DNA of 64,000 bases from an uncultured virus (IMG/VR IMGVR_UViG_3300008003_000324) (lineage: Duplodnaviria > Heunggongvirae > Uroviricota > Caudoviricetes): the IMG/VR virus record IMGVR_UViG_3300008003_000324; one strand, given 5' to 3'. Of the stretch, positions 8,072-64,000 are shown piece after piece. Numbering within the stretch: position 1 is the stretch's first letter; every line of letters starts with the position of its first letter. The notes below the pieces were generated by a model. It was not told the DNA's origin, did no database searches, and saw only the letters and a list, made by a program, of their open reading frames with translations. The translations under genes and the position numbers were made by a program.

Positions 8072-9001
8072 TTATTTCCTTTGTAGTGTGAATGATCCGT
8101 CCGGGTGGTAAAATCTTTTTTTTCCAAGACTACTTTCTCGTATCTGTTGTTTTTGTTGGGAAGATCGATAATAACGATCATATTCAAACTCTATCCCACG
8201 ATTATTGCATTCTTTACGTAGCGCTTCAATAAATTTTTTCCTAGACCCGTTCCAACGGTGCTTAGAAAAGTTTATTATGTAAATTAAATTTTTTTCTTCG
8301 CAGTACTTCTTGTACTCAGATTTTATAAACCTTCCATCGGAACAAGTCTTTATGTAATCTATAGTCTGTTCAAGGTACTCTTCGTTCTTTATATTGTGAG
8401 CATTAAAGTTTTTTAATCCCCGATTCCTTTTGCTCAAATATTCTTTTTGATCTTTTTTTAAACTTTTTCCTTTAGAATGGTGAACCCATTTTCCGCCCAG
8501 AACATTTTCGTGATTTACATCAACTGAGCCTATCATTTCTCCAGTGATGAAATCCTTGACAGGCATTTTTCCTCTCCTAGCTTCAGAAATTCTTGGGTGA
8601 CCGGAATTGTTGGCTTTGATAAATCTAGAAAAAGCTTCTCTTTGGTATTTAAACTTTTTCCTCAGTATTTTGTTAACATGAATATCTTCCAACTTTTTTC
8701 CAAAAAAGCCATTTAGCATTAGATTTACGGCACAAATATCATTATATTTCCCATAAACTTTATAACGCAAGTAGTGTATAAACAAGTGTTCTTCTGGTAA
8801 GAGGGACACGATGTTATCTTCACTGTCCATTCCTCCCTCTGATCTAGGAACTATATGATGTCTTTCAACATATAAATTATCAGAATTGAGCCTCAAATCC
8901 CTCGGGTTTCTTCGAATTATCCTAGTCTTAACATCAGTGTTAATAAAGTCTATAATGAAATTGTTATAGATTTTCTCGTAATTCATAGTCGGTAATGTCA
9001 T
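8072..9001 (-). CDS. free-standing HNH homing endonuclease (MobE-like) in the first nrdA break
   Basis: YVERHHIVPRSEGG.D...NIV.L..EEH...H..L..VY, as in T4-type Mob HNH enzymes. Confidence 0.88.
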   Translation of the reverse strand: MTLPTMNYEKIYNNFIIDFINTDVKTRIIRRNPRDLRLNSDNLYVERHHIVPRSEGGMDSEDNIVSLLPEEHLFIHYLRYKVYGKYNDICAVNLMLNGFFGKKLEDIHVNKILRKKFKYQREAFSRFIKANNSGHPRISEARRGKMPVKDFITGEMIGSVDVNHENVLGGKWVHHSKGKSLKKDQKEYLSKRNRGLKNFNAHNIKNEEYLEQTIDYIKTCSDGRFIKSEYKKYCEEKNLIYIINFSKHRWNGSRKKFIEALRKECNNRGIEFEYDRYYRSSQQKQQIRESSLGKKRFYHPDGSFTLQRK

Positions 9002-26800: not shown

Positions 26801-27188
26801 TCTACAGTCTCCTTTTATCAGTATCACGGTTGATAGTTATAAAAACATCATCATTTTTCAAGTCGTCGGGGGCTATTTCAATGAATTGACCGTCCCGCTC
26901 TACTACCAATGAGTGGTCTTCTGTCACTGTGACAATTTTTCCACATTCCAACTCAATGCGAAATAGTGGTTTACTTATTTTGTGTCTGTATATCGTAAGA
27001 ATTTCTTTATCAATTATTCTCTTAGTTTCTGGGTTGTAACATGGTGAATAATTGTTGTCTCCGTGCATCTTTATGATTTCTTTTTTGCCCTCCATATATG
27101 TACCGTATTTTGTCGAATGTTCTTTAAACCATTCTCCTACATTCTTAAATTCCCCATTGATTTCAATTACTGAAGATTCGACCACACT
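26663..27188 (-). mobile_element. split intein in PolB (IntN 26805-27188, IntC 26663-26800), no endonuclease
   Basis: YGDTD|SVVESS...VTEDHSLVV...stop; separate ORF ...HN|S. Confidence 0.9.
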
Positions 27189-28991
27189 ATCAGTATCACC
27201 ATAAAGTATTGATTTTGAAGGATATTTGTACTCTCCGTCTAAAATAAGAGCTATTTTTTTAGCCATATGCAATAGGATGTTCTTACCGGTCTTGGTTGTG
27301 GATTCTGCGAGTCTAACATCGAAAAATCTGAAATATTTGTTTCCGAATACCCCATAGAGAGAATTAAGCTGAATCTTTTTCAAGTATTGTATATTGTCGT
27401 AATACTCGGCTTCCTTCTTATATCGTTCTTCGTTGGTTTCTTGATGTTTCGCATAAGCGTCAACCTTTTTCTTTTGATATTCGATTCGCTCGTCGAACCA
27501 CTTCGTCAAGATACAGGGTATGACCCCGTCTTTAGCCTGATCAAAAATTGTCCCATGGCCACTTATTGCCCAGTTACGCTTCTCTAGAGCATTTCTCCAT
27601 TCTGAGGCAGTCATGGTCTCATCATTTCCATCTTCGTAGAGCAGGGTAAGATGTATATCTCCCGATTTTTCTTGAATGTATTCAAACGCTTTTTCGTTTT
27701 CGAAGAATTGACCTATTATTGTTTCGGGTGAAATGTTGATGGCCCTCATACTAGATGGATATAGAGATTTAATGTCTACAGATGCAATCCATTCGTGTAG
27801 ACCTATTTGTGGATCTAATACGAAAGCACCTTCAAACTTTGTACCATCATCAAATACATCATAAGGAGCATCCGGCAACACAAGCCTTTTGTCCTGCTCG
27901 TGTTTGCAGAAATTTAGAATAGCTGTGTCGGACGTACTAGTTGTTCCCAAAACCGCTGGAATATTATTGGTTGTCATATGAGAAAAGTTCAAAGCTAGGT
28001 CCATATACTTGAACTTCAAGTCAAGATGTTTCAAAATGTCTGTATCTCGAATGTTGTATCGTAAAAACTCGTCAAAATCTTCGTGATACAATCTATACAG
28101 AGATTTGTCGTAACTCAACTTCTGAAACCCATCTAGAGATTCTTCAGCAACGGATTCCAAAGAATAAGAATCACGTTCGCTCGCATCAAATTTCTTAACC
28201 ATCTCCATGAAGTCTATCCAAATTCTCCCATGAGGTTTAACCACCATTTCCATTGTGCCGAATTTCTCGCGTTCGTCCACACGAACATCCAAATCGGACT
28301 CTGGAAAGTTCATCAACCTCGTATATTTTTTACCCAAGACTTTCATGGTTCTACTATAGATGTATGGGTCATCGAACCAGTCACTGTTCCAACCGCTAAC
28401 GACATCACTGTCTTCTATCTCTTGATAAAAACGCGTCAACAATTCTTTTTCGTTAGATAGTAATTCAATCTTGGAATGATCAAATAAGTCTCTAGGAAGT
28501 TCGTCTAGTTGGACCTTAGACCATTCGCCCGTCTTCGGTCTTAATGCAAGGACGATAGATTCGTCAGTGTGTTTATGGTATAGAGCGATAGAACTTATTC
28601 TAGCATACGGGTTGTCGGGTCTAGAATGACCCCTCTCTGGGTCGTAATCAACCTCAATGTCATAGAAAGTTACATGAAGATCCCCGTCAAGGGGACTATT
28701 GTAATAGTTGTCACTCAAAACTTTGAGTTCGGGAGAAATATCAGATTCGTATATCTTTATTTCCGCTTCTCTCAATCTCTTCCTGCCGCCATAGAAATCA
28801 TAATGGCTCGTAAACTCTATCTTTTCTAGTTTTTTTCCTGTAACGGAATAACATTCTTGGTCAGAATCTTCGTTCTCTACAAAAAATTCATATGGGGCAT
28901 CGTAATATACAGCGACCCTCTTACCGTCTGGGCCTCTTTCCCAAACAATAACGTTTTTTCGGTCTTCTGTTAGTTGCGTAGAAAGATACAT
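26802..28991 (-). CDS. DNA polymerase B, N-terminal piece (exonuclease and palm) + IntN (128 aa)
   Basis: FYDIEV, GWNS.WFD, DIKSLYPS, KIQLNSLYG, YGDTD. Confidence 0.95.
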   Translation of the reverse strand: MYLSTQLTEDRKNVIVWERGPDGKRVAVYYDAPYEFFVENEDSDQECYSVTGKKLEKIEFTSHYDFYGGRKRLREAEIKIYESDISPELKVLSDNYYNSPLDGDLHVTFYDIEVDYDPERGHSRPDNPYARISSIALYHKHTDESIVLALRPKTGEWSKVQLDELPRDLFDHSKIELLSNEKELLTRFYQEIEDSDVVSGWNSDWFDDPYIYSRTMKVLGKKYTRLMNFPESDLDVRVDEREKFGTMEMVVKPHGRIWIDFMEMVKKFDASERDSYSLESVAEESLDGFQKLSYDKSLYRLYHEDFDEFLRYNIRDTDILKHLDLKFKYMDLALNFSHMTTNNIPAVLGTTSTSDTAILNFCKHEQDKRLVLPDAPYDVFDDGTKFEGAFVLDPQIGLHEWIASVDIKSLYPSSMRAINISPETIIGQFFENEKAFEYIQEKSGDIHLTLLYEDGNDETMTASEWRNALEKRNWAISGHGTIFDQAKDGVIPCILTKWFDERIEYQKKKVDAYAKHQETNEERYKKEAEYYDNIQYLKKIQLNSLYGVFGNKYFRFFDVRLAESTTKTGKNILLHMAKKIALILDGEYKYPSKSILYGDTDSVVESSVIEINGEFKNVGEWFKEHSTKYGTYMEGKKEIIKMHGDNNYSPCYNPETKRIIDKEILTIYRHKISKPLFRIELECGKIVTVTEDHSLVVERDGQFIEIAPDDLKNDDVFITINRDTDKRRL

Positions 28992-39082: not shown

Positions 39083-42000
39083 TTATGGTATGATATCAGA
39101 CGTTAAAATTTCAATAGAGCACAATGTTATTTCACCTGAAAACGCAAATCCAAGAATATCAATATTAGCACCAGTACCTATAATTCCAGATAGTCCGGTA
39201 TATTCAAATATCTGGGGAACGCCATCCACCAATTCCATTGCTTGATACCCCGCCCCACCCGATATCGCATCAAAAGTCACTTGTGTGTCACCCGACACAC
39301 CGCCTGTACCCGATGATGTTAATGTAAATCTAACACCCTGAATGTTAATGTTTTCATATGCAGGATTGATAACTATGTTCATACTATTGAACCCTTCAAA
39401 ACTTTTCGTCCAACATGGGTTGGTGTATACCGTTGGGGTCTGTCCGTCACCCGTAGTTGGATCACCAGTCCAATATGTATCAGGCGTAATATCTACCCAG
39501 ATTGGTACGGATGCAGCCGACGGGGTTGGGGTGGGTGATAGTATTGGTGTAACACTTGGTGTAACACTTGGTGTAACACTTGGTGTAACACTCACGGTTG
39601 GGGTGGGGGTAGGAGTTGGTGGTGGTGGTACGTCTACAGCACACTCTAATTCACTACCAACCACTTTAACAATTTCCAGCGTCTCACCTTCTAAAATAGT
39701 ACCCGCATTTCCAACATCTACGGCCACCCACGAAGTCTTGAAAAAGTCCGGGTGCTTTTTCTTAGCAATCATAGAATTTTCCAGAATCTCAAAAAAGATG
39801 TCATTGACTTCTTTCACGGTGAACAGAGCATATATCGCTCTGAGTAGCTGTACGTATCCCTCTGGTACCGTTAGATCATAAGATTCGTAGAACGCTTCTA
39901 TATCACCAACAGACCATTTTCTGTTCGGTTCAAACAGCACCTGAGTAATAAGTTTTCTTAGGATGTCTCTATCAACTAAAGTTTGCTCTCTACCCAGTCC
40001 AATTCGTGTAGAAGCGCCGCGCACTAATACATCGTATCTGACTCTTTCTTCAGACGGAACCGGGACTCTCTCGTCAATGTTGAACAATTCGTCCACAACT
40101 TCAAATCCGGTAGTACTTTCAACCACTTTTCTCCAAAGAATAAAATCGATTTTAGAAGTTTGGTTCTTTCTAATAAGTTTCCAATCTACGTGTTTGTTCT
40201 TTTTTTCTAAATCAAGACCCAGATCATCTCTTAATGTAAAATCTTTCCGAAGTCTTAGTACATAATCAGAGTTATTCTTAACGCTGTTTGCCAAACCTTT
40301 GATGATAAGTTGAGAGAATCGCAATGGTAGATTGTTGTCGTCGGGGTCGTAGGTTGCCCCGAACAACACACCATAACCATCACCCTCCTCACGGAATCCT
40401 TCAATAACGGCGTAGGGTTTGGTCATATCTGAGAGTTCACGCTCCGCGTCAAAAAGAGTAAGTGTAGTATTATTCAACAACTTCTGTGATTTGTCACCTC
40501 TAACCCAAAAGTAATACTTTGATTTTATATCACCGCTCACGCGGTCTATGTAGTCTATCTTACTGTGGGGATGTACCCGGATATAATCACCATTATCAAT
40601 TTCCTCTTCGCTAGGGACAACAGCTTCCTTTACCAACGTAATTATTGAATTGTCGGGGATATCAAGCCCGAAGGTTTCTGCTAATGCGAGCGTGGCCAAA
40701 AATACGTCATAGGAAACATAATTAAACCTTAAGGTAAATTTTCCATTAACGTACAGGTCAAGAAATTGTTCAGGTGTGAAATCTTCCAAATCTGACGATT
40801 CTATCCCGGCCTTGGGGAAACTTCTTACAATGGTTTTTTCTTCTTCCCACCGGGCTTGTCCCGCTCCGGGATTTACTACTTTTTTATAAACCACAGATTT
40901 TGGATTTCCTGTCAACTTTTCCCCCAGTGGTATATTTTCTAGAGACTGTTTCTCTACTTCGTTAATATAATCCTCTGGTGAGAAATCACTTTCTGTCCAG
41001 CGATACATTTCTATTTCTCCGTAATCTGCTAAATTGCCCCACTTCAGACTGCGCTCTTCTTGATTTGGAAAAATGAATTTGTCGTAGTAAGGAACGTATC
41101 CTTTTTTGGTTATATCCAGCCAAACTTTTCCTATCTGTTTTTCTTCCCAAAAACTTTCTCTCTTGATAAACGCGCCACTGGAAGAATTAACATCAAAATC
41201 CAAAGTATACGAGGCTGGATCTTTTTCTAGCTTAAAATCTATTGGATAATTTCCTACTGGGTTTTCTTGTCCAAAAGCCGGGTTCCATATAGGAATATCG
41301 GCAACCACCCGTTCCTCACGTTTGTTATCTATCAACTTGAAAATGTTAGTACTGTCGTATGAATACCTCAACCCAGTAACAGTAATATTCTGCCACACCT
41401 CGATGTTTGTAGCAATGAATTCTATGACTAACCCGTTTATAAATCTATAATCCACACCTTCGCTGGCAATGAATTTTTCATCAGAAATTTCATACTCGAT
41501 CTTAGCACCATAAACAGGGACGTTCAATCGTAAAACCGGATTATTGGTAATACTTGTGATCGTTGACGTTTGTATTAGATTTTCAGCATTCGTGAATATT
41601 TCAGTTTCTTCAACATCTAAGAAATAACCCTTGAACGGCTTCATTAGATCCACAACATCTGGAAGATTTTCCCAACGGTTAAAATCAGTTAGTCGAATAG
41701 GAATATAGTCCTTTCCGATAGTTCCGCCAGTTGGTGGAACAAATTCAAGTCGAAGTTCCTTTCTAATTACGTCATCCGTATTGAGTTTTATCTCAGGGTA
41801 GGCTTTTTTCTTAGAATCCCCAAACTCACATAGTTTATATGCCCAGAACTCATCAACTGTTACTCCGGTTAATGCACGTTGATTTGTAAAAGCCTCAAGT
41901 GAAAAATTTGTACCCTTGTTTTGTACAAAAGATTTCCAAAATACAAACTGTGACTTTTCGTTAATACCCAAGTTTTCCATATACTGTTTTGGTCCCTGAT

Positions 42001-45000
42001 ACCCCACGGACCTTCTGACTGCCTCTGTAGTATCATCACCCCTAATGTTGTTGTATACATCGTAATAGTCTCTTATATCTTGTATCGATTTTTCGATGTT
42101 ATCTATTAAGGAGTTGTCACTCAAAACCAAACCCCCCACATGGAGTCTTCCCGTGGGTTCTGTCGGCCTCAGAAAACTTAAAAACACCCTAGGGGTTTTG
42201 ATTCCTAAAAAGGGATCATATATTAACTTGTTACCGCTAGTGTACTGATTAAACCTGCAAATGTGCGACACCTCGAAAATAGAATAATCCGCACCCGCAA
42301 TCTTATTTTCGCTGTTCTGTGTTAACAAAACGCTTGTTTCTCTGTCATTCCTGAAAAATAATAAATTTTCTAAGTCGATGTATTCTCCATTAACATCCAA
42401 AACATTTTGTCTTTCGAATAACCCGTTTCTGGCCCTCTCAAAACTCGAAGGTAACCCTCTATCGTGGCTCACAACAAAATGGTTGTAATATGGATTGGTC
42501 ATCATTTTAGGAAGAACTTTGTCACTTTTGAAAATTTCCAAATACACTTCCCCGGAGCCGGTAGAAAACTCTATAAACCTTCCGGCAGTGGCGTCGTTTT
42601 TGGAATATGCCAACTGAATAGCACCAGACCTAGTAACAATAGCGTAGTATGGTACAAACGCATTAAATGGACTGTTTAATTCTTCCGGCACCGTTCCACC
42701 CTCACCCGCTTTCAACCTTACGGCCTGTCCAGTCGCCAAGAACTGTCCAGAAGGACTGATAAAAGAGCTAGAATCAACGTTTACCGTTGCAGATATTCTC
42801 GGGGGGAGTTCTTCTGCTCTCTGTATTAGAGTGTCTAGCCACACAATATACTTTTCAATTTCCAAAATCCATTCATTGTCTCTTCCACTGTCTTCGGCTT
42901 TATTGGTCTTGTCAAAAGGAACTGACTTAATACCGCGATCTTCCAGCAGAGCTTCATAACCAAAGAGAATATCTATGAGAGATTGTATTCTGGTTACGTT
43001 TTGAGCTTCAAAGAGGGTTTTAACGAGGCGAGTGTCTGGTTCATGTCTTCTGAATGCATAGTCTATTCTGTTCAACGGTTTAAACGTGTTTGTGACTTTT
43101 CCGACCCAGAAGTTACCAGAACCCGCAGTGGCAAAATTTATAACAGTTCCCAATTTTGCTAGGTCTTCACTCTCTGAAATCTGGAATGTTGTACCGTTAA
43201 TCTTTACGATATAATAGGGAATATAATTCAGTAGTTCTCCCGGTAGTACCCCGTCTGTGTTTAAAAATACCTCTTGCCCGGTTTCCCACGGGATTGTTAT
43301 GGTATTTTCTGGGCTTACAATTCCGTCTACGATGTCGTCAGTTATAACAACATCTTCCAAGACTTTAACTAGAGTCTCGTTTCTTCTAAAATCGTATATT
43401 ACGTCGTCAACTGTATACGTCCCACCATAGTTGGTAGAAGAAGAGACCGTTATCTGGTCACCAGCCGAAAACTCTCCCAAAACGTTGCCATAAACATAGA
43501 ATATTTTTTTGAACTCGAAATCAGTTATGCCGTCCTCAGACACTAAGCCCGAAGATATTACGGGAAAAAGGCTGTCTAGGCTAATGCTTATTGAAGAACC
43601 GAGACCCGTGGCCTCGCTGCGGATGATCAAATATCCGTTTTCTAAATCGATAAAGGCACCACTTATTTGATCATTGATACTGGCGATAACGTCACCAACT
43701 GTCGGAGTATTGGGAGAGAGTGACCCGTCTATGGTGACAACAGTAGACGTTGTGCCGTCGATATCAATAGTAAACTGGTATGGCCCTGCCGTTAACCCAG
43801 TAACATCCGTCAACGCTAAAGGTGAAGAATATATAGCTCTCCAAAAGCCTCTAGGTGAGTCTATTTCTGTGGCCTTGATTTGATACCCACCGGTTGTAAA
43901 AGTATTTGTTCCCACCAATCTAACTTGGTAATTTTGTGGTGGATAATATTCTATAGTTTTCTTCTTTTTAGGACTTTTAATATATGGTTTGAAAACCCAG
44001 TTGCTTGTTTCGTAATGAGTTCTTTCCGTGATTGGGGCTCTTTTTTGGACCGCCCAATTTATCGCGGAGAATGTATTTTCGGTCGAGTTTAGCTGGCGAT
44101 CAATGAATGTCGCATAATCTCTAGCAACTATGTCGATCTGGTCCCCCGAAACACCTAATGTAGTGTCGTTGATCAGAGTGTTAAAAATGTATGCTGCGTT
44201 TACATTCCAACCAATCCATAAATCCCTATAGTCAGAAGATCCCCCGTCTAACTCCAGATATCTATTGTAATTAACGATCCACTGCTGTATACCCGCAGAA
44301 TAATAAACCGTGCCATCTTCTCTGTAGTCTCCGTGGAATAGAGTTTTAAAATGTGGATTTATATTTTGGGTTTCTTTGTTAGCAAGCAAGCAATCTACTT
44401 GTACCAAATCATCACCATAGTTTCTGCTAAAAAATTCTATTGGATCACACAAAAAAGACGCCTTGAGCAAGAAATATAAGTAGCTACTACTATTTTTCCA
44501 TTTCCACTCAACTGGACCATCTTGTCCAAAAAGAAAATCCGCATTTGGAGAAGATACATAATTGCCAAGACTCTTGTCGAATAGTGGTTTAAAGCGGGGG
44601 TCTGCCGATAGCGAACCATCCCAATATGGTGGTGCCAGTTCATCACTAGCAATACCCGCCACGGTACTTCCGGTTACGTTAACGGGAGAGTAATCGTAAA
44701 TTTGAGTTTCTCCACTGTTGCCAGTAGAAATAGTTCCATTTGGTAATTCTTGTCCGGCTGGGACGACTCCAGTGAATATGTTATCCCACATAGTTTCTTT
44801 CCAGAATCGATCTATTCCTAAATCGTTATTCTTGTATGTGGTCTTCCACCATGTGGGCTCTTCTTCATAACCTTGCAAGATCCAAGGTTCTCGGTGGGGA
44901 TATGCTGTTCCATATATTTCTTCATACAATCCCTGCCACGATGCCTTTCCCCTAGCAGAAAAAACTCCGGAAAGTGGATGTGTTGCTATGTCGGTATTGG

Positions 45001-48000
45001 CGTAGTTCCATGTAAAAGCATCCCCGCTCTGGAACGCGGTGTTGTGTAGTGCATCTTCTCCGACCAAACACAAAAATTCGGTCTCTTCAAGATCTCTAAA
45101 ACGACTGTTTGTTTTAGTCAACTCTAGATTATAAAATTCGTCTAATGGCTCTCTGTGCTGTCCGGCAGAGTATAACAGAGTTTCCAACTCGTAAAGCAAA
45201 TTGGCAATTTGTCCGATCACATCAATCTCGGTCCATGAACCTGATTCTAATTGATACAAAGATATGCTTTTTTCGGAAGAAACCCCCCTAACCAAATAGT
45301 CTCCTTCTGCATAATCTGCTATATCCGGGAAAGCTTCACTGTCTTCGGACACCTTCTGTGTATTTTTGGTTAGTATTCCGTAGAATTTGCTCTTCTGAGC
45401 GTTCGTTATATCTAATGTGAAATATGTGCCATCGTGTCTTTTGACTATCCAGTCTTCACCCCGTTTGAATATAGAAGGTTTAGAAAGCCCCGTCATTCTC
45501 AAAATTGCCGAAGTTGATATTACGTTTTTGATCCCATATCCATCAGCGTAACTAAAAGAATCTCCAAACAAACGATCCCATCTTGTGTTATTTTCGGTGT
45601 AATTTTCGAAGTTTTCTATTAAATCGACTTCTGACATTTCTAAAAAAGTAGAAAGATTTTCTAGATATCGTAATGTCCACCTATAAGTAAGTCGTTCGTA
45701 TGCGTCCCCCACAAAATCTAAAGTTTTGGGTATATCAATTTGTTCCCCCAACATCGCAGAGACTAGTAGGTCGAGGTTGCCGTTGTGTTCTTTGATGGTA
45801 CCACCCAATCCGAAGTTTGGATTGTTCAAAGCATGAAACACTTCTTCTGGGTTTGTCGAATTGTATTTTGTCGGTTCTTGTGCTAATGTTATAGTTTTGA
45901 AATGTCTAAATAAGTCGGTGAGACTTACTTCCTTTCTAAGCTCATGCTGTATGTTATATTTCCAACTGTTGGGTATGTCCCAGTCACTTTCTATTTTTTC
46001 TGGGACGGATTGTTCATTAAACTCTCCTTTCTTCCAAATAGTTTTAATCTTATTGTCCCTTAAATCTAAATAGCAGCGTAATTTTCCTTCAGAATCCACA
46101 AGACCGTGTTCAAAAACTAGATCTCGTTCATTCCTCTTGTATTCTGCTCTTAGGTCTAACGTTCTATTCAACTCAAATTCTCCATTTTCTTTAAACCAGA
46201 AAATAGAGTTAGATTCTTCTAGTGGGTTTCCTAGAATATCATATATTTTGAACAAGGGATATTGGTTAGTTTTGGTTTTAGTTTGTTCTATTCTCTTATA
46301 TCGAGACAGGTTATAGATATCTGGTGAATTTCCCGTAGGATCAACCACTACAACGTCTTTTCGACCGATGTCGTGTGTCCAATATTCTCCTAATTCGATA
46401 CGAACTAGCGTGTCCGGGGTGATAACTAGGTCACTATCTAGAACAATAGCCCCAACGTAATTGGTATTGTTGGCGGGAATGTCTGTATGTCTTCCATATA
46501 TTCTTTTTCCGTCGATATACAGACGAAGGTCTCCTTCTTGGTAATCCTCAATCAAACACAAATCCGTAAGAGATTCATCAAGCTCCAACCTAGCTCCATT
46601 TATTGTAGAAGTAGGGTTGAATTCTTGCCAGTATAGCCCTATTTTGGTTTGGTATTCTTGGAAAACGCTATTTGTCTCTGTCTTAATTTGTATAGCAGGT
46701 CCATCTAGCATGGGGTTTTTTTCGGGCTCTGCACCACTGGCTGTGATATTTTTTATTCCAACAAAAGCCCAGTGAGTAACCAGTGGATCAAAAGTATCCC
46801 CCAAACTGGTACGTTCCGGGTAGATTGTTCCCCCTCCATCAGAAATGTCATCGCCCACGCTGAAGAAATTCTCTACTACCCGGATAACGGATTGATATCT
46901 TTCACCCGGAGTAAATTGTACAAATTCTACACTGTCAATAGTGTACTGGCCGTCGTTGGTGTTAAATCCAACGAGATTTATATTGTCGCCCTTTGTGAGA
47001 ACCGATTCCATATTACCAAATCTGGCCGGTAGTAGTAATTCGTTTGAAGCTAACTGAAAAACTGGGACATTTTCGCTATCTGATTCTTCTATTTTTATAG
47101 GTCTAATTTCTAAAAGATTGGGTTGGTCTTCAACTTTTTTGTATTGATCTTCAACTGTCTTTCGGTAAGCCCATTCAAATTCAAATTTGGAAAAGTAGGA
47201 AAGCTCTATGTAGTTCTTATATTCTATAATCGGTTGTGTTGCCTGACGACTTTCCGAAAGATTCGTAATTTGGTTTTTGTGTACCCACTTGTTTTCATCA
47301 GCCCAGTCGTTGCTGTCCGCTCGTAATTTGCTGTTTTCACTTTCGTACAATATAGAAAAAGACCTGACTTTCGTCTTCCACTGTCCGTCAATCCATTGAT
47401 ATAAAATGTCAGTGGTCGTATCGAAGAAAAAATCATTTTCTTGGGCATATACATTTGCAGATAGACTATCTTTGACGTATATTTGATAAGAAATATTTTC
47501 GTCTTTGAAAAATTCAACACCGTCAACTAAAAATCTATCAGGGTCACCAAAAACTGCACCTTCGACCCAACTAGATAAATCATGGTCCCCTGTGTTTGGG
47601 CCACTATTTATTTTGATTCCGTACTCGGCACCGACAACAAGCTCTGACGCGGGTCCACCGAAATATTGTATTACTTCGTTTTCGCCAAGTGACAGTACGA
47701 AGCCCCCATTTGACGAAAAAACTTCCCGACGGTCATACCATACGGGCTCGCCGAGGTCATAGATGTTTATTTCGTCAACCTGCTGTGGCTCTGCCACATC
47801 TTGAAAATATATGGATTCACTTCTAGCGGCGTATGCATAAGCATGAACAGATACCCGTGTAGGGGAGGTTTGGGGGACAGTTTTAAGCGTGAATACACTT
47901 TCATTATTGTCTTCGTCAAACTCGTAAGATTGAACCTCGACAAATTCTTGTATACCATCCAAATCCGTATATAAACTTAAAATAAAACCTTCACGAGCCC

Positions 48001-48754
48001 CCGTCAAAAATGACCCGGATACTCGAAGTTCTGTGTTTTCCAAAGAAACAATTTCTCTATCCAAACGAACATACTCATTAAACGAAGTCAGGTTTAGAGT
48101 CCAACCATCAAGACTCAGATAACTACCGTCTGTTTCTTTAACCACAGCTACATATATGTTCTGTTCTACATCGTGGACGATAAAAATTCCAGCACTCTCA
48201 GAGTCGAGGTTAGTTGTTGGGTTAGATGTAATAATGTCAGAGAAAACACCTTTCTTCAACTCGTCGTATTTTGCTTCTGAACGGGTTCTCTGGACTTCTA
48301 CTGTGATATAGTTTGGAGTAGTGTTTCTGTCAGTCCAGTAGTAGTCTTGATAATTTATTATCTTATCAATGTTTACAGGAGGTAGAAAATTAAATTGTAA
48401 CGCTTTACCCCATTCACCAAAACTCTCAAGGTCCACCCCATCACGTTCTAGGTTTTTAAGGAATTTCTCAAATGTCAAGAACTTGGTTTCCGCACCCAGA
48501 GTTGCACTGATAACCTCTTGGAGTTGGTTCTTCTGCAAATACTCTCTACCTTCTGATATTCTAGACAAAACCGAATTGTCTATTTCTTTTCCAACATATC
48601 CCGTTACTTCTTCAAAATTCTTTTTTGTGAGGAAGCGGTTTAAGATGTTGTTGGAAATTCCGTTCCAAAGTCGGCTACGAGAATATTCTGGAAGTAAAGA
48701 AGAGGTATCAACTACCTCTCCTTTTTTGTAGTCGGTGATGTGCTTTCGAGACAT
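39083..48754 (-). CDS. giant (3223 aa) virion/baseplate protein, gp7-like position
   Basis: Follows the gp6-like gene; DKIINY.DYYW, PHREPW..., EFWAYKL..FG, KTSW; Pro/Thr linker and terminal beta domain. Confidence 0.8.
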   Translation of the reverse strand: MSRKHITDYKKGEVVDTSSLLPEYSRSRLWNGISNNILNRFLTKKNFEEVTGYVGKEIDNSVLSRISEGREYLQKNQLQEVISATLGAETKFLTFEKFLKNLERDGVDLESFGEWGKALQFNFLPPVNIDKIINYQDYYWTDRNTTPNYITVEVQRTRSEAKYDELKKGVFSDIITSNPTTNLDSESAGIFIVHDVEQNIYVAVVKETDGSYLSLDGWTLNLTSFNEYVRLDREIVSLENTELRVSGSFLTGAREGFILSLYTDLDGIQEFVEVQSYEFDEDNNESVFTLKTVPQTSPTRVSVHAYAYAARSESIYFQDVAEPQQVDEINIYDLGEPVWYDRREVFSSNGGFVLSLGENEVIQYFGGPASELVVGAEYGIKINSGPNTGDHDLSSWVEGAVFGDPDRFLVDGVEFFKDENISYQIYVKDSLSANVYAQENDFFFDTTTDILYQWIDGQWKTKVRSFSILYESENSKLRADSNDWADENKWVHKNQITNLSESRQATQPIIEYKNYIELSYFSKFEFEWAYRKTVEDQYKKVEDQPNLLEIRPIKIEESDSENVPVFQLASNELLLPARFGNMESVLTKGDNINLVGFNTNDGQYTIDSVEFVQFTPGERYQSVIRVVENFFSVGDDISDGGGTIYPERTSLGDTFDPLVTHWAFVGIKNITASGAEPEKNPMLDGPAIQIKTETNSVFQEYQTKIGLYWQEFNPTSTINGARLELDESLTDLCLIEDYQEGDLRLYIDGKRIYGRHTDIPANNTNYVGAIVLDSDLVITPDTLVRIELGEYWTHDIGRKDVVVVDPTGNSPDIYNLSRYKRIEQTKTKTNQYPLFKIYDILGNPLEESNSIFWFKENGEFELNRTLDLRAEYKRNERDLVFEHGLVDSEGKLRCYLDLRDNKIKTIWKKGEFNEQSVPEKIESDWDIPNSWKYNIQHELRKEVSLTDLFRHFKTITLAQEPTKYNSTNPEEVFHALNNPNFGLGGTIKEHNGNLDLLVSAMLGEQIDIPKTLDFVGDAYERLTYRWTLRYLENLSTFLEMSEVDLIENFENYTENNTRWDRLFGDSFSYADGYGIKNVISTSAILRMTGLSKPSIFKRGEDWIVKRHDGTYFTLDITNAQKSKFYGILTKNTQKVSEDSEAFPDIADYAEGDYLVRGVSSEKSISLYQLESGSWTEIDVIGQIANLLYELETLLYSAGQHREPLDEFYNLELTKTNSRFRDLEETEFLCLVGEDALHNTAFQSGDAFTWNYANTDIATHPLSGVFSARGKASWQGLYEEIYGTAYPHREPWILQGYEEEPTWWKTTYKNNDLGIDRFWKETMWDNIFTGVVPAGQELPNGTISTGNSGETQIYDYSPVNVTGSTVAGIASDELAPPYWDGSLSADPRFKPLFDKSLGNYVSSPNADFLFGQDGPVEWKWKNSSSYLYFLLKASFLCDPIEFFSRNYGDDLVQVDCLLANKETQNINPHFKTLFHGDYREDGTVYYSAGIQQWIVNYNRYLELDGGSSDYRDLWIGWNVNAAYIFNTLINDTTLGVSGDQIDIVARDYATFIDRQLNSTENTFSAINWAVQKRAPITERTHYETSNWVFKPYIKSPKKKKTIEYYPPQNYQVRLVGTNTFTTGGYQIKATEIDSPRGFWRAIYSSPLALTDVTGLTAGPYQFTIDIDGTTSTVVTIDGSLSPNTPTVGDVIASINDQISGAFIDLENGYLIIRSEATGLGSSISISLDSLFPVISSGLVSEDGITDFEFKKIFYVYGNVLGEFSAGDQITVSSSTNYGGTYTVDDVIYDFRRNETLVKVLEDVVITDDIVDGIVSPENTITIPWETGQEVFLNTDGVLPGELLNYIPYYIVKINGTTFQISESEDLAKLGTVINFATAGSGNFWVGKVTNTFKPLNRIDYAFRRHEPDTRLVKTLFEAQNVTRIQSLIDILFGYEALLEDRGIKSVPFDKTNKAEDSGRDNEWILEIEKYIVWLDTLIQRAEELPPRISATVNVDSSSFISPSGQFLATGQAVRLKAGEGGTVPEELNSPFNAFVPYYAIVTRSGAIQLAYSKNDATAGRFIEFSTGSGEVYLEIFKSDKVLPKMMTNPYYNHFVVSHDRGLPSSFERARNGLFERQNVLDVNGEYIDLENLLFFRNDRETSVLLTQNSENKIAGADYSIFEVSHICRFNQYTSGNKLIYDPFLGIKTPRVFLSFLRPTEPTGRLHVGGLVLSDNSLIDNIEKSIQDIRDYYDVYNNIRGDDTTEAVRRSVGYQGPKQYMENLGINEKSQFVFWKSFVQNKGTNFSLEAFTNQRALTGVTVDEFWAYKLCEFGDSKKKAYPEIKLNTDDVIRKELRLEFVPPTGGTIGKDYIPIRLTDFNRWENLPDVVDLMKPFKGYFLDVEETEIFTNAENLIQTSTITSITNNPVLRLNVPVYGAKIEYEISDEKFIASEGVDYRFINGLVIEFIATNIEVWQNITVTGLRYSYDSTNIFKLIDNKREERVVADIPIWNPAFGQENPVGNYPIDFKLEKDPASYTLDFDVNSSSGAFIKRESFWEEKQIGKVWLDITKKGYVPYYDKFIFPNQEERSLKWGNLADYGEIEMYRWTESDFSPEDYINEVEKQSLENIPLGEKLTGNPKSVVYKKVVNPGAGQARWEEEKTIVRSFPKAGIESSDLEDFTPEQFLDLYVNGKFTLRFNYVSYDVFLATLALAETFGLDIPDNSIITLVKEAVVPSEEEIDNGDYIRVHPHSKIDYIDRVSGDIKSKYYFWVRGDKSQKLLNNTTLTLFDAERELSDMTKPYAVIEGFREEGDGYGVLFGATYDPDDNNLPLRFSQLIIKGLANSVKNNSDYVLRLRKDFTLRDDLGLDLEKKNKHVDWKLIRKNQTSKIDFILWRKVVESTTGFEVVDELFNIDERVPVPSEERVRYDVLVRGASTRIGLGREQTLVDRDILRKLITQVLFEPNRKWSVGDIEAFYESYDLTVPEGYVQLLRAIYALFTVKEVNDIFFEILENSMIAKKKHPDFFKTSWVAVDVGNAGTILEGETLEIVKVVGSELECAVDVPPPPTPTPTPTVSVTPSVTPSVTPSVTPILSPTPTPSAASVPIWVDITPDTYWTGDPTTGDGQTPTVYTNPCWTKSFEGFNSMNIVINPAYENINIQGVRFTLTSSGTGGVSGDTQVTFDAISGGAGYQAMELVDGVPQIFEYTGLSGIIGTGANIDILGFAFSGEITLCSIEILTSDIIP
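39545..39592 (-). repeat. 12-bp tandem repeat, 4 copies, encoding (SVTP)n
   Basis: TGGTGTAACACT x4 on the plus strand. Confidence 0.9.
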
Positions 48755-59841: not shown

Positions 59842-61161
59842 ATGAAAATTTTACAAGTACTTGAGGCCACTACCTACATGACGGATATTTCGTCAAATGA
59901 TTTCGGTCAAATGAGCCAATTTTTCTCTTTTCTTGAAAAAGAAAAAAAGGGGTACAATCTCTCTCTGGATGATGTAATGCGTTTTGTGCTAACAATCAAA
60001 AGCAAAAAGAGCGCTCTGCGAAACGTAGCAGGTTCAGGAGAAGAAATATCAAGGTCCCTTGCTTCGTCAACTGTCGGAAGAGAAGCCAATCTTGCAAGAG
60101 GGTTCAGTGATACCAAAGATGTAAATCTAGGTGAAACCAGTATTGATAATATGCATGCAGTAGGAAAAGCATTAGAGGCCGCAGGATATGCAGAACTAAA
60201 CGATGATCCACGCAAATCAACAATAGACCGAGACGCAACCGCGAGATTATTGAAATTCATCAACACTATTAAAGCTAGTGGTTTCAATACACCACGACAG
60301 GTAGCTCAAAATTTCGAGAAGGCCGTTGGTTCATATCGCCGTGGTGTAGAGGGCTTCAAACAAGATATCGGTAGAGGGAACAGTGATCTTGATATTGCTA
60401 AAGATCGAGTAAGTAATATAACACCAAACATGTTAATGTTTCTGGCCGCAGTAGTAAAGAAAAAAGGTAGAAGTGAAGCGTGGGACAACTACCTAAACCC
60501 TGATAACTATGATGAACCACCGTTGCCGGGTTATACTCCGGGGTCATACAATCCCCGTGAAGCCGCTAAAGAACTAATAGCTATGGGACTTACAACCAAA
60601 ACACCCAAAAAAGGACTGATAACTCTAAACAAGGATGCAATTAAAAAATCGGTTTCAGCCCTCCGCAACGAGTTAGAAGAATTAAAAACAGGTAGCATCG
60701 AACAACCCGGTAACGTTAACACAAAAAGTCTAAAAGCCGTTGAACAAAATGCTAAAGCGTTAATCGACAAGATTGACTCAATGGTTCCTAATGACATCAA
60801 ACGACTGGCAGAAAGTAAACTAGCAGCGGCACTTAGAAAAGCCAGTGAAGATACCGGTGACGATTCTTTTATTCAAGCCTATAACTTGTATACTAACAAA
60901 CTAGCCCAATCAAGCGAAAGTGAAGCCGTGGGTGATGCTTCCGAAAGAATCAAAAAAACCCACTTAGGTAGTGTTATCGCTTTCCTGAGAGCCAGAATCA
61001 TCGGTCGCATGCTTTACCATTACGCATCGATGGTAATAGGCGATGGAAAAAAGTGGAAAGCACCAAACAAAGACTATGGATTTACTGGTCCAAAAGAACT
61101 ATCTATGGTAAGAAGCGCGCTCAAAAGTGGCGATGCATTAAAAACGTCACGTCTTTACTGA
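59842..61161 (+). CDS. hypothetical protein (possible internal virion protein)
   Basis: 439 aa, GATAAATA upstream, MKILQVLE start. Confidence 0.7.
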   Translation: MKILQVLEATTYMTDISSNDFGQMSQFFSFLEKEKKGYNLSLDDVMRFVLTIKSKKSALRNVAGSGEEISRSLASSTVGREANLARGFSDTKDVNLGETSIDNMHAVGKALEAAGYAELNDDPRKSTIDRDATARLLKFINTIKASGFNTPRQVAQNFEKAVGSYRRGVEGFKQDIGRGNSDLDIAKDRVSNITPNMLMFLAAVVKKKGRSEAWDNYLNPDNYDEPPLPGYTPGSYNPREAAKELIAMGLTTKTPKKGLITLNKDAIKKSVSALRNELEELKTGSIEQPGNVNTKSLKAVEQNAKALIDKIDSMVPNDIKRLAESKLAAALRKASEDTGDDSFIQAYNLYTNKLAQSSESEAVGDASERIKKTHLGSVIAFLRARIIGRMLYHYASMVIGDGKKWKAPNKDYGFTGPKELSMVRSALKSGDALKTSRLY

Positions 61162-61168: not shown

Positions 61169-61200
61169 TTGACTTCACCTTCCCCAAGCATATATAAATA
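61169..61200 (+). promoter_or_regulatory. overlapping sigma70-like and late promoter
   Basis: TTGACT (61169-74) and TATAAA 18 bp downstream, within TATAAATA (61193-200). Confidence 0.7.
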
Positions 61201-61201
61201 A

Positions 61202-61537
61202 CCCTGTTCCCAACTTTGCAGTAAAGGAACACTTACAATTTGCATATCCCGAACAGGCTGCACAAATGTCGGACAGGGTGGATAGTAGACGATGAGGTTG
61301 CTATCCCATAGAAAAGCCCTAAAGGTCTGAATGAGGGGATTATACGTTGGTAACGCTTTCGGGACAGGCTGGACGTATAAATCCTAGACTCATGAAAACA
61401 AGTTCATTGTTCATCGCAGTGAAAGGTCTTGGATCAATATTGATCGCGAATGACTGGAGATCGTCTTTGTACTGCAAATACAATGATCTTGTTATGGTAG
61501 TAGCAAGATAGATTCACCTACCTAGGTTGGAACGGGA
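61202..61537 (+). ncRNA. candidate large structured ncRNA, family not recognised
   Basis: End-to-end pairing, nested helices and loop-loop complementarities; no ORF; promoter directly upstream. Confidence 0.65.
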
Positions 61538-61559
61538 AATTTCCTAAACAAATTTATTA

Positions 61560-61800
61560 TACAATTTTGTTAAAAAATGGGGGAGAGTATTTTAAAACCC
61601 TTCAAAAAATATTCAAAAACACTGTAACCTACAAAATAGAAATAAAACAGAAACAAAATAAAGAATGTAAATGCGAACGGAGCGAAGCGTAGTGAGTATT
61701 TACATTCTTGTAAAAAAAAACGAAATAACAAATTAATGGGGACCCCTTCGGGTCCCTCGGAGTCCGCTGTCGCGAACATCCGACTTGCTCTGCGCTCTTT
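61560..61800. other. candidate replication origin / single-strand initiation element
   Basis: A-rich tract, 12-bp perfect stem capped by GCGAAGC, further GC-rich hairpins. Confidence 0.4.
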
Positions 61801-61869
61801 AATAAGGTACAATATACAGGTACACCCAAATAGGTACAGACAAATGAACTACAAACAAATAGGTTGAAT

Positions 61870-64000
61870 ATGAAACACGAAGAGATACTTGAAAATAACG
61901 AAAAGAAAATTCTAGAGACACTAGGAAACAGAAGTGTGTTCGACGCTTGGAAGAAAGCTCTAAATTACACGCCCAGAGATTCTCAAGAGAAGGTAATGGA
62001 GTGGATTGATACGTTGCCACCTGAAATCAAGTACATTTTAGTAGAAGCCCCCGTAGGCTGTCATGCAATAGATACACCAATAATAGGCTATGACGGACAC
62101 ATCAAACTGGTTCAAGAAATAAAGGTTGGGGATCAACTAATGGGACCTGATGGAAAAAAGCGTACCGTTTTGGAACTGCATCGAGGTACTCAACAGATGT
62201 ATAAGATAACACCGGTAAAAGGTGACCCATTTGTCGTCAACCAAGACCACATACTATCGTTGAAAACCACTCCGCTGGGAGGTAGGTACAATGTGTCAGG
62301 GAGCGAAATAGTAAACATTTCTGTTCGTGATTATCTGAATAAATCGAATCACTTTAAAAGAAATCACAAACTGTATCGACCGGATTTCATTGAATTTACG
62401 GATTCTCAGTCTTTTCAGTCTTGCAACGAAAAACAGCAAGAGATAAACCCATATTTCATGGGAGTACTGTTGGGGGATGGATGTATGAAAAAATGTGCTT
62501 CAGTTACCACTATCGATTATCAAATTGCACAGACCGTATATGAACAAGCGGAAGTATTTGGACTTGAGGTTAGGGAACAAGTCAAAGAATCTACACATGC
62601 AATACAGTATTACTTGTCTAGTGGAAGGTCTCAGCTATATGAAGACCGAAACCGCTTGATCGATATTCTGAAGAGAAACGGCTTGTATGGAAAAACTTCA
62701 GGGAATAAGTTTATTCCACACATGTACAAGGTTGGAAATAAGTTAACACGACTCGAAATACTGGCAGGGCTTATAGACACCGATGGAAGTCACAACGGTA
62801 GAGGGGGTTTTGATTATGTAACTAAATCCCCCCAGTTGGCAGAAGACATTAAGTTCATATGCAGAAGTTTGGGACTATCTGTAAATTCCAGTATAAAGAC
62901 GGTAGATGGAAAAAAATATGCAAGAATATGTATTAGTGGTAACACAGATATTATACCTACCCGTTTGGAGAGAAAAAAGGCACCACCTCGAAAACAAAAA
63001 AAGAGACCCACAGTGACCGGGTTTTCGATAGAAAAACTTGATGTAGATGAATATTACGGCTTTTCTCTGGATGAAGACCATCTCTATTTGTTGGGGGATT
63101 TCATAGTAACACACAATTCAGGAAAATCTAATTTAGCAATGGCATTCAGTTCTTACATTAGTGATAGAATGGGTGATTCGTTCATATTAACTCCACAGAA
63201 AACGCTACAGCGCCAATATGAAGAGTCATTTGAAAAACATCTTCTTTTTTCTGTATACGGAAGAAGTAATTATGAATGCGAACAAAAAAACACGACTTGT
63301 GATGTAGGCGCGGATATTAAACCTGCATGTGATAATTGTCCCGCTAAACTCGCAAGAGATATGTCTATTACATCACCTAATGCCGTAATGAACTATACAT
63401 TAGCTCTAACTTATTTCAAATACTTGAGAAAAATGATTCCCCCTAGAAATTTAATGGTGTTGGATGAAGCACATACCTTGGAATCCAACCTTGTCGAATT
63501 CAGTTCGATTTCTGTAACGGACAAGAAATGTAAGAAATACAACGTCAAGTTCCAGTTCGCTCGTAGCGCCGCTGAGGCCATAAATTGGATAAGTCGTACC
63601 TATCTACCTGCCGTCGAAGCAAAATCGATAGAGCTACGTAAGAAGGTGACTGAGATCGAAACTAGAGGTGGGGCACTGAGTAAATCTGACATACAGACTG
63701 TTCGTGCTGCCATAACAGCCACGGAACATCGTAACCAATTAGTAGATCTAGTAGAAATGGACATGTCTCTAATAGACAAGAAATACGTCCTTGTGTCTGA
63801 AAAAGTTGGATTCAAATTCAAGGAACTCTACGCCAAGAATAATTTTAAAAACATTTGTTTACCAATGGCAAATCGTTTTCTCTTTATGTCATCTACTATT
63901 CTGGATAAAGACGAATTCTGTCGAGACTTGGGGATCGACCCAGATGAGTCTGCTATGATTTCTCTTGATTCCGAATTTCCAGAAGAAAACAGGGAAGTAA
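61870..64000 (+). CDS. DinG/XPD-family SF2 helicase with intein (runs off the window; absent from ORF track)
   Basis: Manual translation: YTPRDSQ, VEAPVG|intein|SGKS, GRSNYEC..C..C..C cluster, LDEAH, FMSST. Confidence 0.9.
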   Translation, partial: MKHEEILENNEKKILETLGNRSVFDAWKKALNYTPRDSQEKVMEWIDTLPPEIKYILVEAPVGCHAIDTPIIGYDGHIKLVQEIKVGDQLMGPDGKKRTVLELHRGTQQMYKITPVKGDPFVVNQDHILSLKTTPLGGRYNVSGSEIVNISVRDYLNKSNHFKRNHKLYRPDFIEFTDSQSFQSCNEKQQEINPYFMGVLLGDGCMKKCASVTTIDYQIAQTVYEQAEVFGLEVREQVKESTHAIQYYLSSGRSQLYEDRNRLIDILKRNGLYGKTSGNKFIPHMYKVGNKLTRLEILAGLIDTDGSHNGRGGFDYVTKSPQLAEDIKFICRSLGLSVNSSIKTVDGKKYARICISGNTDIIPTRLERKKAPPRKQKKRPTVTGFSIEKLDVDEYYGFSLDEDHLYLLGDFIVTHNSGKSNLAMAFSSYISDRMGDSFILTPQKTLQRQYEESFEKHLLFSVYGRSNYECEQKNTTCDVGADIKPACDNCPAKLARDMSITSPNAVMNYTLALTYFKYLRKMIPPRNLMVLDEAHTLESNLVEFSSISVTDKKCKKYNVKFQFARSAAEAINWISRTYLPAVEAKSIELRKKVTEIETRGGALSKSDIQTVRAAITATEHRNQLVDLVEMDMSLIDKKYVLVSEKVGFKFKELYAKNNFKNICLPMANRFLFMSSTILDKDEFCRDLGIDPDESAMISLDSEFPEENREV
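62059..63117 (+). mobile_element. contiguous intein (353 aa) with LAGLIDADG endonuclease in the helicase Walker A motif
   Basis: CHAIDTP...VNQDHIL...MGVLLGDG...LAGLIDTDG...YYGFSL..DHLYLL.DF.VTHN|S. Confidence 0.95.

Follow-up and report, generated by a model that had tools for sequence, protein, structure and literature searches.

A structured RNA family beside the DinG-like helicase gene of uncultured jumbo T4-like phages, with a candidate role in replication priming

Introduction

In the 64,000-nt stretch of viral DNA analysed here (the window), a gap of 702 nt separates a 439-aa open reading frame (59842-61161) from the start of a helicase gene at 61864, raising the question of whether the gap encodes a functional RNA, whether such an RNA belongs to a described family, and what it could do for the phage. 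The original prediction, made from the letters of the window, had proposed a promoter-driven, large and ornate phage non-coding RNA of unrecognised family. This core proposal is supported by 27 distinct sequences, by covariation, by four long-range pairings and by the lack of an Rfam match, and we rate the RNA family as new and previously undescribed.

Genomic setting and promoter

The window is a fragment of the genome of an uncultured jumbo T4-like myovirus, with genes for tail sheath, baseplate hub, family-B DNA polymerase, sliding clamp, thymidylate synthase and ribonucleotide reductase; its nearest record, G001, comprises 73 kb and is rated 21% complete. The neighbours of the RNA locus are replication and recombination genes, and the helicase itself is DinG-like (Helicase_C_2, ResIII and DEAD_2 domains). 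An intein (Hint/LAGLIDADG) is also present in the helicase of the window, and nrdA is split by homing-endonuclease genes, the genome being rich in mobile elements. On the other side of the gap, the 439-aa protein yielded no Pfam, PHROG or PDB-sequence match, every structural lead from a protein atlas scored a TM of <0.3, and only 3 clusters in a large protein collection correspond to it. Across the RNA loci, the upstream proteins form two groups without detectable mutual similarity, and the group does not track RNA type. The RNA region had been described as covered by no open reading frame, which needs correcting: three short ones overlap it, of 54 aa on the plus strand and of 38 and 47 aa on the minus strand, the first of them without a Pfam or PHROG match.

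A strand switch in gene orientation and a cumulative GC-skew minimum lie no more than about 4 kb from the locus in all three genomes considered (the window and two complete genomes), evidence that is weak because these genomes share synteny and are not independent, and because the skew minimum coincides with the orientation switch and tracks transcription.

The predicted promoter directly before the RNA is of the sigma-70 type, with TTGACT and TATAAA elements and an 18-nt spacer, and elements of this kind are kept in most relatives. Among 25 sequences, one of which has only 36 nt upstream, a TTGAC[AT] -35 element was found in 20, a -10-like hexamer 15-19 nt from it in 19, and TATAAATA in 11. 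An automatic promoter scan did not report this site because its -10 hexamer lacks the final T. TATAAATA also presumably resembles the T4 late-promoter consensus.

Distribution among related phages

Candidate loci were collected through helicase alignment, 27 from viral contigs and 77 from metagenome contigs. Searches with a sequence profile and with R1, a covariance model of the 5' junction domain, left out twelve duplicate loci and identified 27 distinct sequences with the RNA among the 98 sources searched. All 27 lie on the helicase strand, just upstream of a DinG-like helicase gene, in uncultured jumbo T4-like myoviruses. Helicase identities across the RNA-bearing loci range from about 40 to 62%, at one syntenic place, and the first divergent copy, L004, was reached through its upstream protein (54% identical). 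Identical copies of the RNA occur in three IMG/VR records. With R1, two complete genomes bearing terminal repeats (315 and 307 kb) yielded a single copy apiece, as did two partial records, and phage XacN1 yielded no match. Also identified were 49 related helicase loci carrying neither the RNA nor the G-rich box that follows it (the G-box, see below).

Against 50,697 phage records, neither blastn of the RNA region in distant mode nor tblastn of the upstream protein returned a match, and the former recovered no cultured phage. Viral contigs were additionally scanned for exact patterns with the query words GCATATCNCGAACAGGC and GCTTTCGNGACAGGC; for GCATATCNCGAACAGGC, 4 of 15 loci, from 3 contigs, were real, and the others were unrelated.

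Predicted fold and covariation

Plus-strand folding of the region gave -102.9 kcal/mol with a z-score of -3.11, a value that none of 100 shuffles equalled, compared with a z-score of -1.86 on the minus strand (6 of 100 shuffles as good). We predict a structured RNA of about 340 nt to the end of its 3' hairpin, or about 385 nt if the G-box is included; the original extent of about 335 nt was sound in proposing a large structured RNA, while its 3' boundary was probably placed too short. The core fold, derived with RNAalifold from 10 sequences, is predicted to be a three-way junction plus a long hairpin domain, locked by four covarying long-range pairings: PK1, the Hy/P_E kissing loops, the H1/P_H loop contact and PK2 (Table 1).

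Table 1. Predicted features of the RNA locus, in window coordinates
Feature	Position	Strand	Remarks
Promoter	61169..61200	+	-35 TTGACT 61169-74, 18-nt spacer, -10 TATAAA 61193-98 inside TATAAATA 61193-200
5' hairpin H1	61205..61232	+	TGTTCC/GGAACA stem, 61205-10 with 61227-32; loop 61215-23 contacts P_H loop
Conserved single-stranded motif CAAUUUGC, then PK1 5' strand (61247-53)	61236..61253	+	Conservation; PK1 covariation
Three-way junction	61254..61329	+	Closed by helix P2, 61254-59 with 61324-29
Hairpin Hx (vestigial)	61262-69	+	Within three-way junction; 98% of cells paired (25 sequences)
Junction CGGAC	61270-74	+	Conserved; within three-way junction
Helix P_B	61275-78 with 61317-20	+	82% of cells paired (25 sequences)
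Hairpin Hy	61280-306	+	Caps P_B
Junction AAA	61321-23	+	Conserved; within three-way junction
Helix P_C	61331-35 with 61389-93	+	Encloses P_D; 100% of cells paired, 5/5 pairs changed on both sides
Long hairpin P_D	61336-85	+	Inner loop bears PK1 3' strand 61358-64
Junction GAAAAC	61394-99	+	Conserved
Hairpin P_E	61403-09 with 61417-23	+	Loop 61410-16 kisses Hy loop 61290-95
Variable 3' domain	61425..61522	+	P_F, P_G, conserved AUGACUGGAGAUCG, P_H, P_I, PK2
Helix P_F	61425-28 with 61452-55	+	Around hairpin P_G 61432-45
Hairpin P_H	61467-83	+	Loop 61472-78
Hairpin P_I	61486-509	+	Loop supplies PK2 strand
3' hairpin	61523..61546	+	Outer stem TAGG/CCTA covaries; interior GGUUGG/UUUCC conserved
Spacer hairpin (61547-71), then A-tract and polypurine G-box AAAAAATGGGGGAGAG (61572-87)	61547..61587	+	Unique in window
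AT-rich stretch	61588..61863	+	Conserved hairpin 61661-709 (GCGAAGC-type loop), hairpin 61739-56; helicase start 61864

Helix P2, formed by CAGGCT and GGTCTG, is paired in 99.3% of cells across 25 sequences, and two of its pairs, G61257-U61326 and U61259-G61324, are wobble pairs invariant in all 25. This helix was absent from the original prediction, and a pairing of CGGAC with GUCUG, our first idea for this junction, was replaced by P2 on the basis of better covariation. Per-sequence minimum-free-energy folds reproduce the P_B and Hy layout in 8 of 10 sequences (L145 and L146 fold otherwise), and those of P_D and P_E in 10 of 10 each, with 95.8% of P_D cells paired on the 10 sequences. Conserved junction bases comprise GC, CGGAC, AAA and GAAAAC. 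H1 is retained with differing stems in L238, L169, L143, L145, L004 and L170, covarying in the first three, and the stem of the 3' hairpin occurs in TAGG/CCTA, ACGG/CCGT and GGGT/ACCC versions. Short-form relatives (L149, L152 and L168) are missing part of the variable 3' domain.

Several elements of the fold had been anticipated. The hairpins at 61280-306, 61337-84 and 61486-509 recur in relatives, as does that at 61432-45 when read by eye. Conversely, the bases of a hairpin proposed at 61238-67 belong to a PK1 strand and to P2, and an outer helix joining the ends (61202-14 with 61526-36) gives way to two separate hairpins, since 61205-10 lies in H1 and 61523-46 forms a covarying 3' hairpin of its own.

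Examining homologues upstream of the DinG helicase for covariation, a check proposed along with the original prediction, yielded strong covariation. On the 10-sequence alignment of 41 pairs, 91.7% of cells were paired against 69.9% when shuffled (0 of 500 shuffles as good) and 36-44% in slid controls, and 32 of the 41 pairs had changed on both sides. For 25 sequences the count took the well-aligned PK1, P2, Hx, P_B, P_C and base of P_D; the variable hairpins Hy, P_D and P_E were omitted and folded per sequence because MAFFT misaligns them. Over these 25 pairs, 93.6% of cells were paired against 75.2% shuffled (0 of 500) and 34-48% in slid-partner controls, with a covariation score of 0.66 against 0.29. 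Weaker on the same sequences were the number of pairs changed on both sides (19 against 15.3; 6 of 500 shuffles as high) and of further pair types (46 against 44.2; 145 of 500 as high).

Long-range pairings

Three of the four loop complementarities noticed at the outset covary among relatives. In PK1, TCCCGAA (61247-53) pairs with TTCGGGA (61358-64); 89.2% of cells are paired across 25 sequences, 3 of 6 pairs have changed on both sides, and a cognate duplex is found at the homologous place in 9 of 10 sequences, in about eight sequence versions, with L155 ambiguous. L004, for example, carries a compensatory change to TCTCGAA/TTCGAGA. The two CAGGCTG copies seen after the PK1 strands differ in this respect, the first being conserved and the second not.

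The kissing loops of Hy and P_E, CGATGA (61290-95) and TCATCG (61411-16), occur as at least 12 different complementary pairs among 25 sequences. Cognate loops averaged -5.14 kcal/mol compared with -1.4 kcal/mol for non-cognate combinations, and none of 5000 permutations did as well; as exceptions, L181 and L192 were no better than shuffles, and L145 was mis-parsed in the run. PK2 joins the loop of P_I (GGTAG, 61496-500) to the strand immediately before the 3' hairpin (CTACC, 61518-22). Read by eye, a pairing of 4-6 bp is possible in 15 of 15 long-form sequences, in versions that include GGUAG/CUACC, GGCAG/CUGCU, GAUAG/CUAUC, GACAG/CUGUC, GAUGGU/ACCAUC and UGCUG/CAGCA; the automatic test of this pairing was noisy (5 of 5000 permutations as good).

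The fourth pairing, TTTGCAGTA (61215-23) with TACTGCAAA (61470-78), had been taken for part of the helix joining the ends. Compensatory changes read by eye support the pairing itself, now as a contact between the loops of H1 and P_H: UUUGCAG/CUGCAAA in the window becomes UUUGUAG/CUACAAA in L238, UUUACAG/CUGUAAA in L169, UACAUGA/UCAUGUA in L143 and L145, AACACG/CGUGUU in L004 and UCACACG/CGUGUGA in L170. An automatic matrix built on long segments did not separate cognate from non-cognate H1/P_H pairs. A further proposed pairing, TCATTGT (61404-10) with ACAATGA (61480-86), is not supported: 61403-09 forms the 5' strand of P_E, and relatives read by eye show no equivalent. The 14-nt complementarity at that place is real within the window.

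The G-box and downstream DNA

Beyond the 3' hairpin lies a polypurine G-box. In 22 of 24 loci, a regular expression located a G-rich box at a distance of 313-405 nt downstream of the conserved 5' motif, and variants are visible in the other two. Of 23 RNA-bearing loci, 17 have a strict form of the G-box ahead of the helicase, compared with none of the 49 loci without the RNA; control counts inside the helicase gene were 0 and 1. The box contains an AUG that is ACG in 6 of 22 loci, and it is therefore not a start codon. A common partner for the G-box inside the RNA was sought and not found: the best complement fell in the promoter area for 3 sequences, in the 3' hairpin for 4, and at other places for the remainder.

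No terminator-like hairpin was found between the 3' hairpin and the G-box in the 24 loci scanned. Such hairpins occur 100-200 nt past the box in 6 of 24 (L004, L143, L145, L152, L185 and L188), and the same scan flagged several hairpins inside the RNA itself. GC content averages 0.28 over the 100 nt past the box and 0.37 within the helicase gene, the former being the lower value at 21 of 22 loci, although intergenic DNA is AT-rich in general. Palindromes of the GCGAAGC type occur in this downstream DNA in either orientation. Direct repeats past the box (best 8-mer count) exceeded the shuffled maximum in only 2 of 22 loci, clearly in L146 (7 against 4) and marginally in the window (6 against 5), where the word is of low complexity and AT-rich. 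These repeats had first been taken for iterons; with no general signal, an origin of the iteron type was rejected.

Relation to cultured phages and known RNA families

Cultured counterparts of this locus are found in the Xanthomonas phages XacN1 and Xoo-sp13 and the Stenotrophomonas phage RAS14, whose helicases are 47-50% identical and whose gene order is shared. In all three, an unannotated gap of 684-820 nt at the same place holds another structured RNA, for which 25 of 95 predicted pairs had changed on both sides over the 3 sequences. In this XacN1-type RNA, a C-run inside the molecule pairs over 13 bp with a G-run further downstream and thereby closes the fold. It resembles the new family in occupying the same gap between homologous flanking genes, in being structured, and in possessing the short motifs CUAAAAC and GAAUGACU and a G-run; it differs in its 5' domain and in the internal pairing of its G-run, and was matched by neither the sequence profile nor R1. 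The proteins upstream of the XacN1-type RNA are also homologous to those of some family members (e.g. L157, E ~1e-35); we suspect that the two RNA types are diverged versions of one element.

Searches with the 4227 models of Rfam 15 returned no match at the gathering score anywhere in the window, and none over the RNA of the window at E up to 10. Ten other members searched at E up to 10 gave only a weak minus-strand match (L181, E 6.4), and L004 and three XacN1-type loci gave none over the RNA at E up to 1. The RNA thus corresponds to no Rfam 15 family in the window or in 11 other members.

The lack of tRNA, tmRNA and RNase P signatures in the RNA was borne out, ARAGORN predicting 0 tRNA or tmRNA genes in the window. 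A tmRNA combines a tRNA-like domain, its ends paired, with a reading frame for the tag; that identity was rejected on the ARAGORN and Rfam results and on the lack of support for the end helix. Bacterial RNase P RNA is built around the P4 pseudoknot formed by conserved CR-I and CR-V. By eye, GAAUGACU and GGUAACGC in our RNA have what we take to be a resemblance to RNase P RNA, which no tool supports, and with no RNase P model matching even at E 10 this candidate was also dismissed.

A group I or group II intron was set aside since the RNA has its own promoter, is flanked by two complete genes (relatives encode the upstream protein at full length, and the N-terminus of the helicase is present) and matches no intron model. 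GOLLD, ROOL, OLE, raiA and HEARO were excluded by the lack of a match to their covariance models. Also rejected was identity with ncRNA003 of phage PA5oct, which lies in a different context, not beside a helicase, and at whose locus R1 found no match; the other PA5oct ncRNAs likewise sit in other contexts (PMC7318152). We found no description of this RNA in the literature. An IMG/VR-wide survey of candidate phage RNAs reports, in the parts of it available to us, motifs of 29-151 nt only (PMC10690425). Four 12-mers from the RNA are absent from six supplementary files of that survey, whose big alignment files may list a sub-motif.

A possible pre-primer at a replication origin

Among the functions considered, we favour, with a probability of roughly 0.35, a role of the RNA as a structured pre-primer at a transcription-primed replication origin. 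Host RNA polymerase would start at the strong sigma-70-type promoter and the nascent RNA would fold, after which transcription would enter the A-tract and polypurine G-box and then the AT-rich DNA. The G-rich RNA could there remain hybridised to the C-rich template as an R-loop and be trimmed to a primer for rightward leading-strand synthesis, while the folded body might control or stabilise the hybrid step, or recruit replication proteins. We favour this reading because RNA and polypurine box occur together, at a nearly constant spacing (17/23 against 0/49 loci), and because no terminator-like hairpin intervenes between the 3' hairpin and the box; the AT-rich stretch, the replication-gene locus and the nearby strand switch also speak for priming. 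A promoter reading into the candidate origin, as a transcription-primed origin would have, is present as a sigma-70-type promoter in 19-20 of 25 sequences.

Precedents for such an arrangement are available from both phages and plasmids. According to the parts of a T4 paper available to us, T4 origins consist of a promoter and an AT-rich unwinding element, form R-loops that are processed to primers, and lie near strand switches, with oriE using an early promoter; R-loop formation there needs no specific sequence (PMC3016281). The present locus is similar to oriF, oriG and oriE in belonging to a phage of the T4 superfamily, in the order of promoter and AT-rich DNA and in the nearby strand switch and composition shift, and to oriE in its early-type promoter, but the T4 origins possess neither a conserved structured RNA nor a polypurine box, both of which are present here.

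In plasmid ColE1, RNA II is transcribed from a constitutive host-type promoter as a structured RNA of several hundred nt with a G-rich segment downstream, and forms a persistent RNA-DNA hybrid. Retroviral polypurine tracts and mitochondrial CSBII are further analogies for polypurine priming. Our RNA is like RNA II in its host-type promoter, in its structured body of several hundred nt and in having a G-rich segment at a fixed distance with no terminator before it, the hybrid being predicted here, and unlike it in the lack of sequence or structural homology and of a visible antisense partner, in belonging to a phage rather than a plasmid, and in its far more elaborate tertiary structure.

A number of observations argue against the pre-primer reading. 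T4 origin transcripts need no elaborate structure, and junction bases and wobble pairs that never vary would rather speak for specific recognition or for catalysis. The pairing of the XacN1-type G-run with an internal C-run (13 bp) suggests that the box may be a structural end of the RNA rather than a site of DNA hybridisation. Further, there is no general iteron signal (2/22), 49 related helicase loci lack both RNA and box, and the AT-rich stretch is weak evidence because low GC is usual for intergenic DNA. A bolder version of the pre-primer reading, which we consider rather doubtful, is an RNA-based origin-licensing device, in which a pseudoknot-locked globular fold, possibly catalytic or self-assembling, would decide whether the polypurine tail stays hybridised and primes the 300-kb genome. 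If so, the T4 superfamily would have its first known structured pre-primer RNA, and ornate viral RNAs would gain a new class.

Alternative functions

The RNA could instead act in trans as a stable molecule, namely as part of a phage ribonucleoprotein, as a ribozyme or as a self-assembling ornate RNA; this possibility, itself tentative, ranks a close second in our assessment. The RNA would then be made abundantly from an early and perhaps also a late promoter, and the G-box would mark or protect its 3' end. A compact fold with four covarying tertiary pairings, with conserved bases at the junctions and with two G-U pairs that never vary is what one would expect of catalytic or protein-binding RNAs, and in the XacN1-type RNA the G-run closes the molecule through an internal C-run, much like the paired ends of stable RNAs. 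Were it self-assembling, the kissing loops would pair between molecules, and homo-oligomers are described for GOLLD, ROOL and OLE in the parts of a study available to us (PMC12286853). With these the RNA shares a large size, an intricate fold and contacts of the kissing-loop type, while differing in its lack of an Rfam match at E up to 10, its shorter length, its fixed locus by replication genes and its occurrence in lytic jumbo phages. Another phage-encoded structured RNA with loop-loop pairs that covary among relatives is the packaging RNA of phi29; the present RNA has these properties in common with it, yet matches no Rfam model, is twice the size, and lies at another genomic place in phages with a T4-like terminase system. 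Against a trans-acting function, no partner protein emerges (the two groups of upstream proteins do not follow RNA type), no Rfam ribozyme or ribonucleoprotein RNA is matched, and the AT-rich stretch and fixed place among replication genes are left unexplained.

The constant position of the RNA upstream of the helicase and on its strand would also suit a cis-regulatory leader of that gene, riboswitch-like or an attenuator, and the G-box has a possible alternative partner, the pyrimidine strand of the 3' hairpin, in 4 of 11 sequences. We nonetheless consider a leader unlikely: about 320 nt separate the RNA from the helicase start codon, several relatives have, by eye, a separate TTGAC-type promoter directly before the helicase, terminator-like hairpins lie between box and helicase in 6 of 24 loci, and the helicases at 49 related loci do without the RNA. 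Equally improbable in our view is a decoy for anti-defence or host takeover, an abundant early RNA that would bind and block a host protein. Such a role would agree with the strong early-type promoter and the lack of any coding or known RNA function; counter-defence genes, however, usually sit in variable regions, whereas this RNA is single-copy and keeps the same syntenic position amid core replication genes in phages whose helicases are about 40-62% identical.

To our knowledge, few large RNAs show several covarying tertiary contacts, and the majority of those known do fundamental jobs. The present RNA is kept in single copy, at a constant position next to the replication genes, across a clade of jumbo phages, and therefore probably serves a core step of infection. 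A pre-primer would show how 300-kb genomes start replication and would connect phage biology with the plasmid mode of controlling priming through RNA folding; otherwise, a new class of ornate RNA would be at hand that is suited to structure determination, with a length of 340 nt and 27 natural variants. In either case the family could enter Rfam directly from the present alignments.

Least probable of all is that the locus encodes no functional RNA and represents a DNA-level element, what is left of a mobile intron, or structure that arose by chance in a long spacer. The wealth of mobile elements in this genome (split nrdA, helicase intein) and the downstream GCGAAGC-type palindromes in either orientation would be compatible with such an origin. 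No group I or group II intron model is matched, however, and the flanks are complete genes rather than exon halves. The promoter is conserved, and covariation already disfavours this explanation, some of the compensatory changes being to G-U pairs, which function on the plus strand alone.

Promoter and alternative pairing of the 3' region

The -10 region of the promoter driving the structured RNA was found to be TATAAATA in the window (61193-61200) and in 10 relatives, lying in each case 17-18 nt downstream of a TTGACA-type -35 element. As TATAAATA resembles the T4 late-promoter consensus, its combination with a TTGACA-type -35 means that the RNA could be synthesized both early and late. Further downstream, among 11 sequences, four (L146, L149, L157 and L168) have their best complement to the polypurine G-box in the 3' hairpin, on its pyrimidine-rich 3' strand; this hints at two alternative folds of the region spanning the 3' hairpin and G-box (window 61523-61587, and its counterparts in relatives). 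In the window, L004 and L143 the best partner of the G-box lay within or before the promoter, not in the 3' hairpin.

Hairpins and repeats downstream of the G-box

Comparison of a hairpin in the window with that of the relative L004 revealed wholly different stems around a retained loop, ACGGAGCG.AGCG.AGTG, which includes GCGAAGC. Similar GC-GAA-GC or GC-TTC-GC hairpins, in both orientations, were also identified 3' of the G-box in other members. In L146, an 11-nt unit (GCCTAATAAGT) is present four times in tandem 3' of the G-box (~2225-2300); among the loci compared, only this one possesses direct repeats clearly above shuffled sequences.

Structured RNAs of cultured jumbo phages

Upstream of the helicase in the cultured phages XacN1, Xoo-sp13 and RAS14, we identified an unannotated structured RNA of another type, closed by a helix of AAUAAACCCCCCG paired with CGGGGGGUUUAUU; in none of the three phages did it match an Rfam family. 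Elsewhere in the RAS14 locus, positions 8712-8873 of L141 scored weakly against the PhrS sRNA model (26.7 bits, E 0.0078), falling short of the gathering score of 37; this stretch ends in a terminator-like hairpin.

Split genes and mobile elements

Feature coordinates in the window and related loci
Feature	Location	Strand
Hairpin with conserved loop	window 61661-61709; L004 5838-5900	
Unannotated structured RNA, ~500 nt	L139 (XacN1) 3233-3916; L140 (Xoo-sp13) 3220-3916; L141 (RAS14) 3106-3925	
Ribonucleotide reductase large subunit, three pieces	window 9018-10688, 7068-8066, 5492-6031	minus
Homing-endonuclease gene between reductase pieces	window 8072-9001	
340-aa ORF, unknown PHROG family, between reductase pieces	window 6021-7043	
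Family-B DNA polymerase, two adjoining ORFs	window 26802-28991, 25850-26827	minus
Helicase with intein (Hint + LAGLIDADG), residues ~66-419	window 61864-63999	
Single 3223-aa ORF adjoining tail genes	window 39083-48754	minus

The splitting of the ribonucleotide reductase gene, together with its interposed ORFs, points to introns, to inteins or to the insertion of free-standing endonucleases. The two family-B DNA polymerase ORFs overlap by 26 nt. Unlike the window helicase, its L004 homologue lacks an intein.
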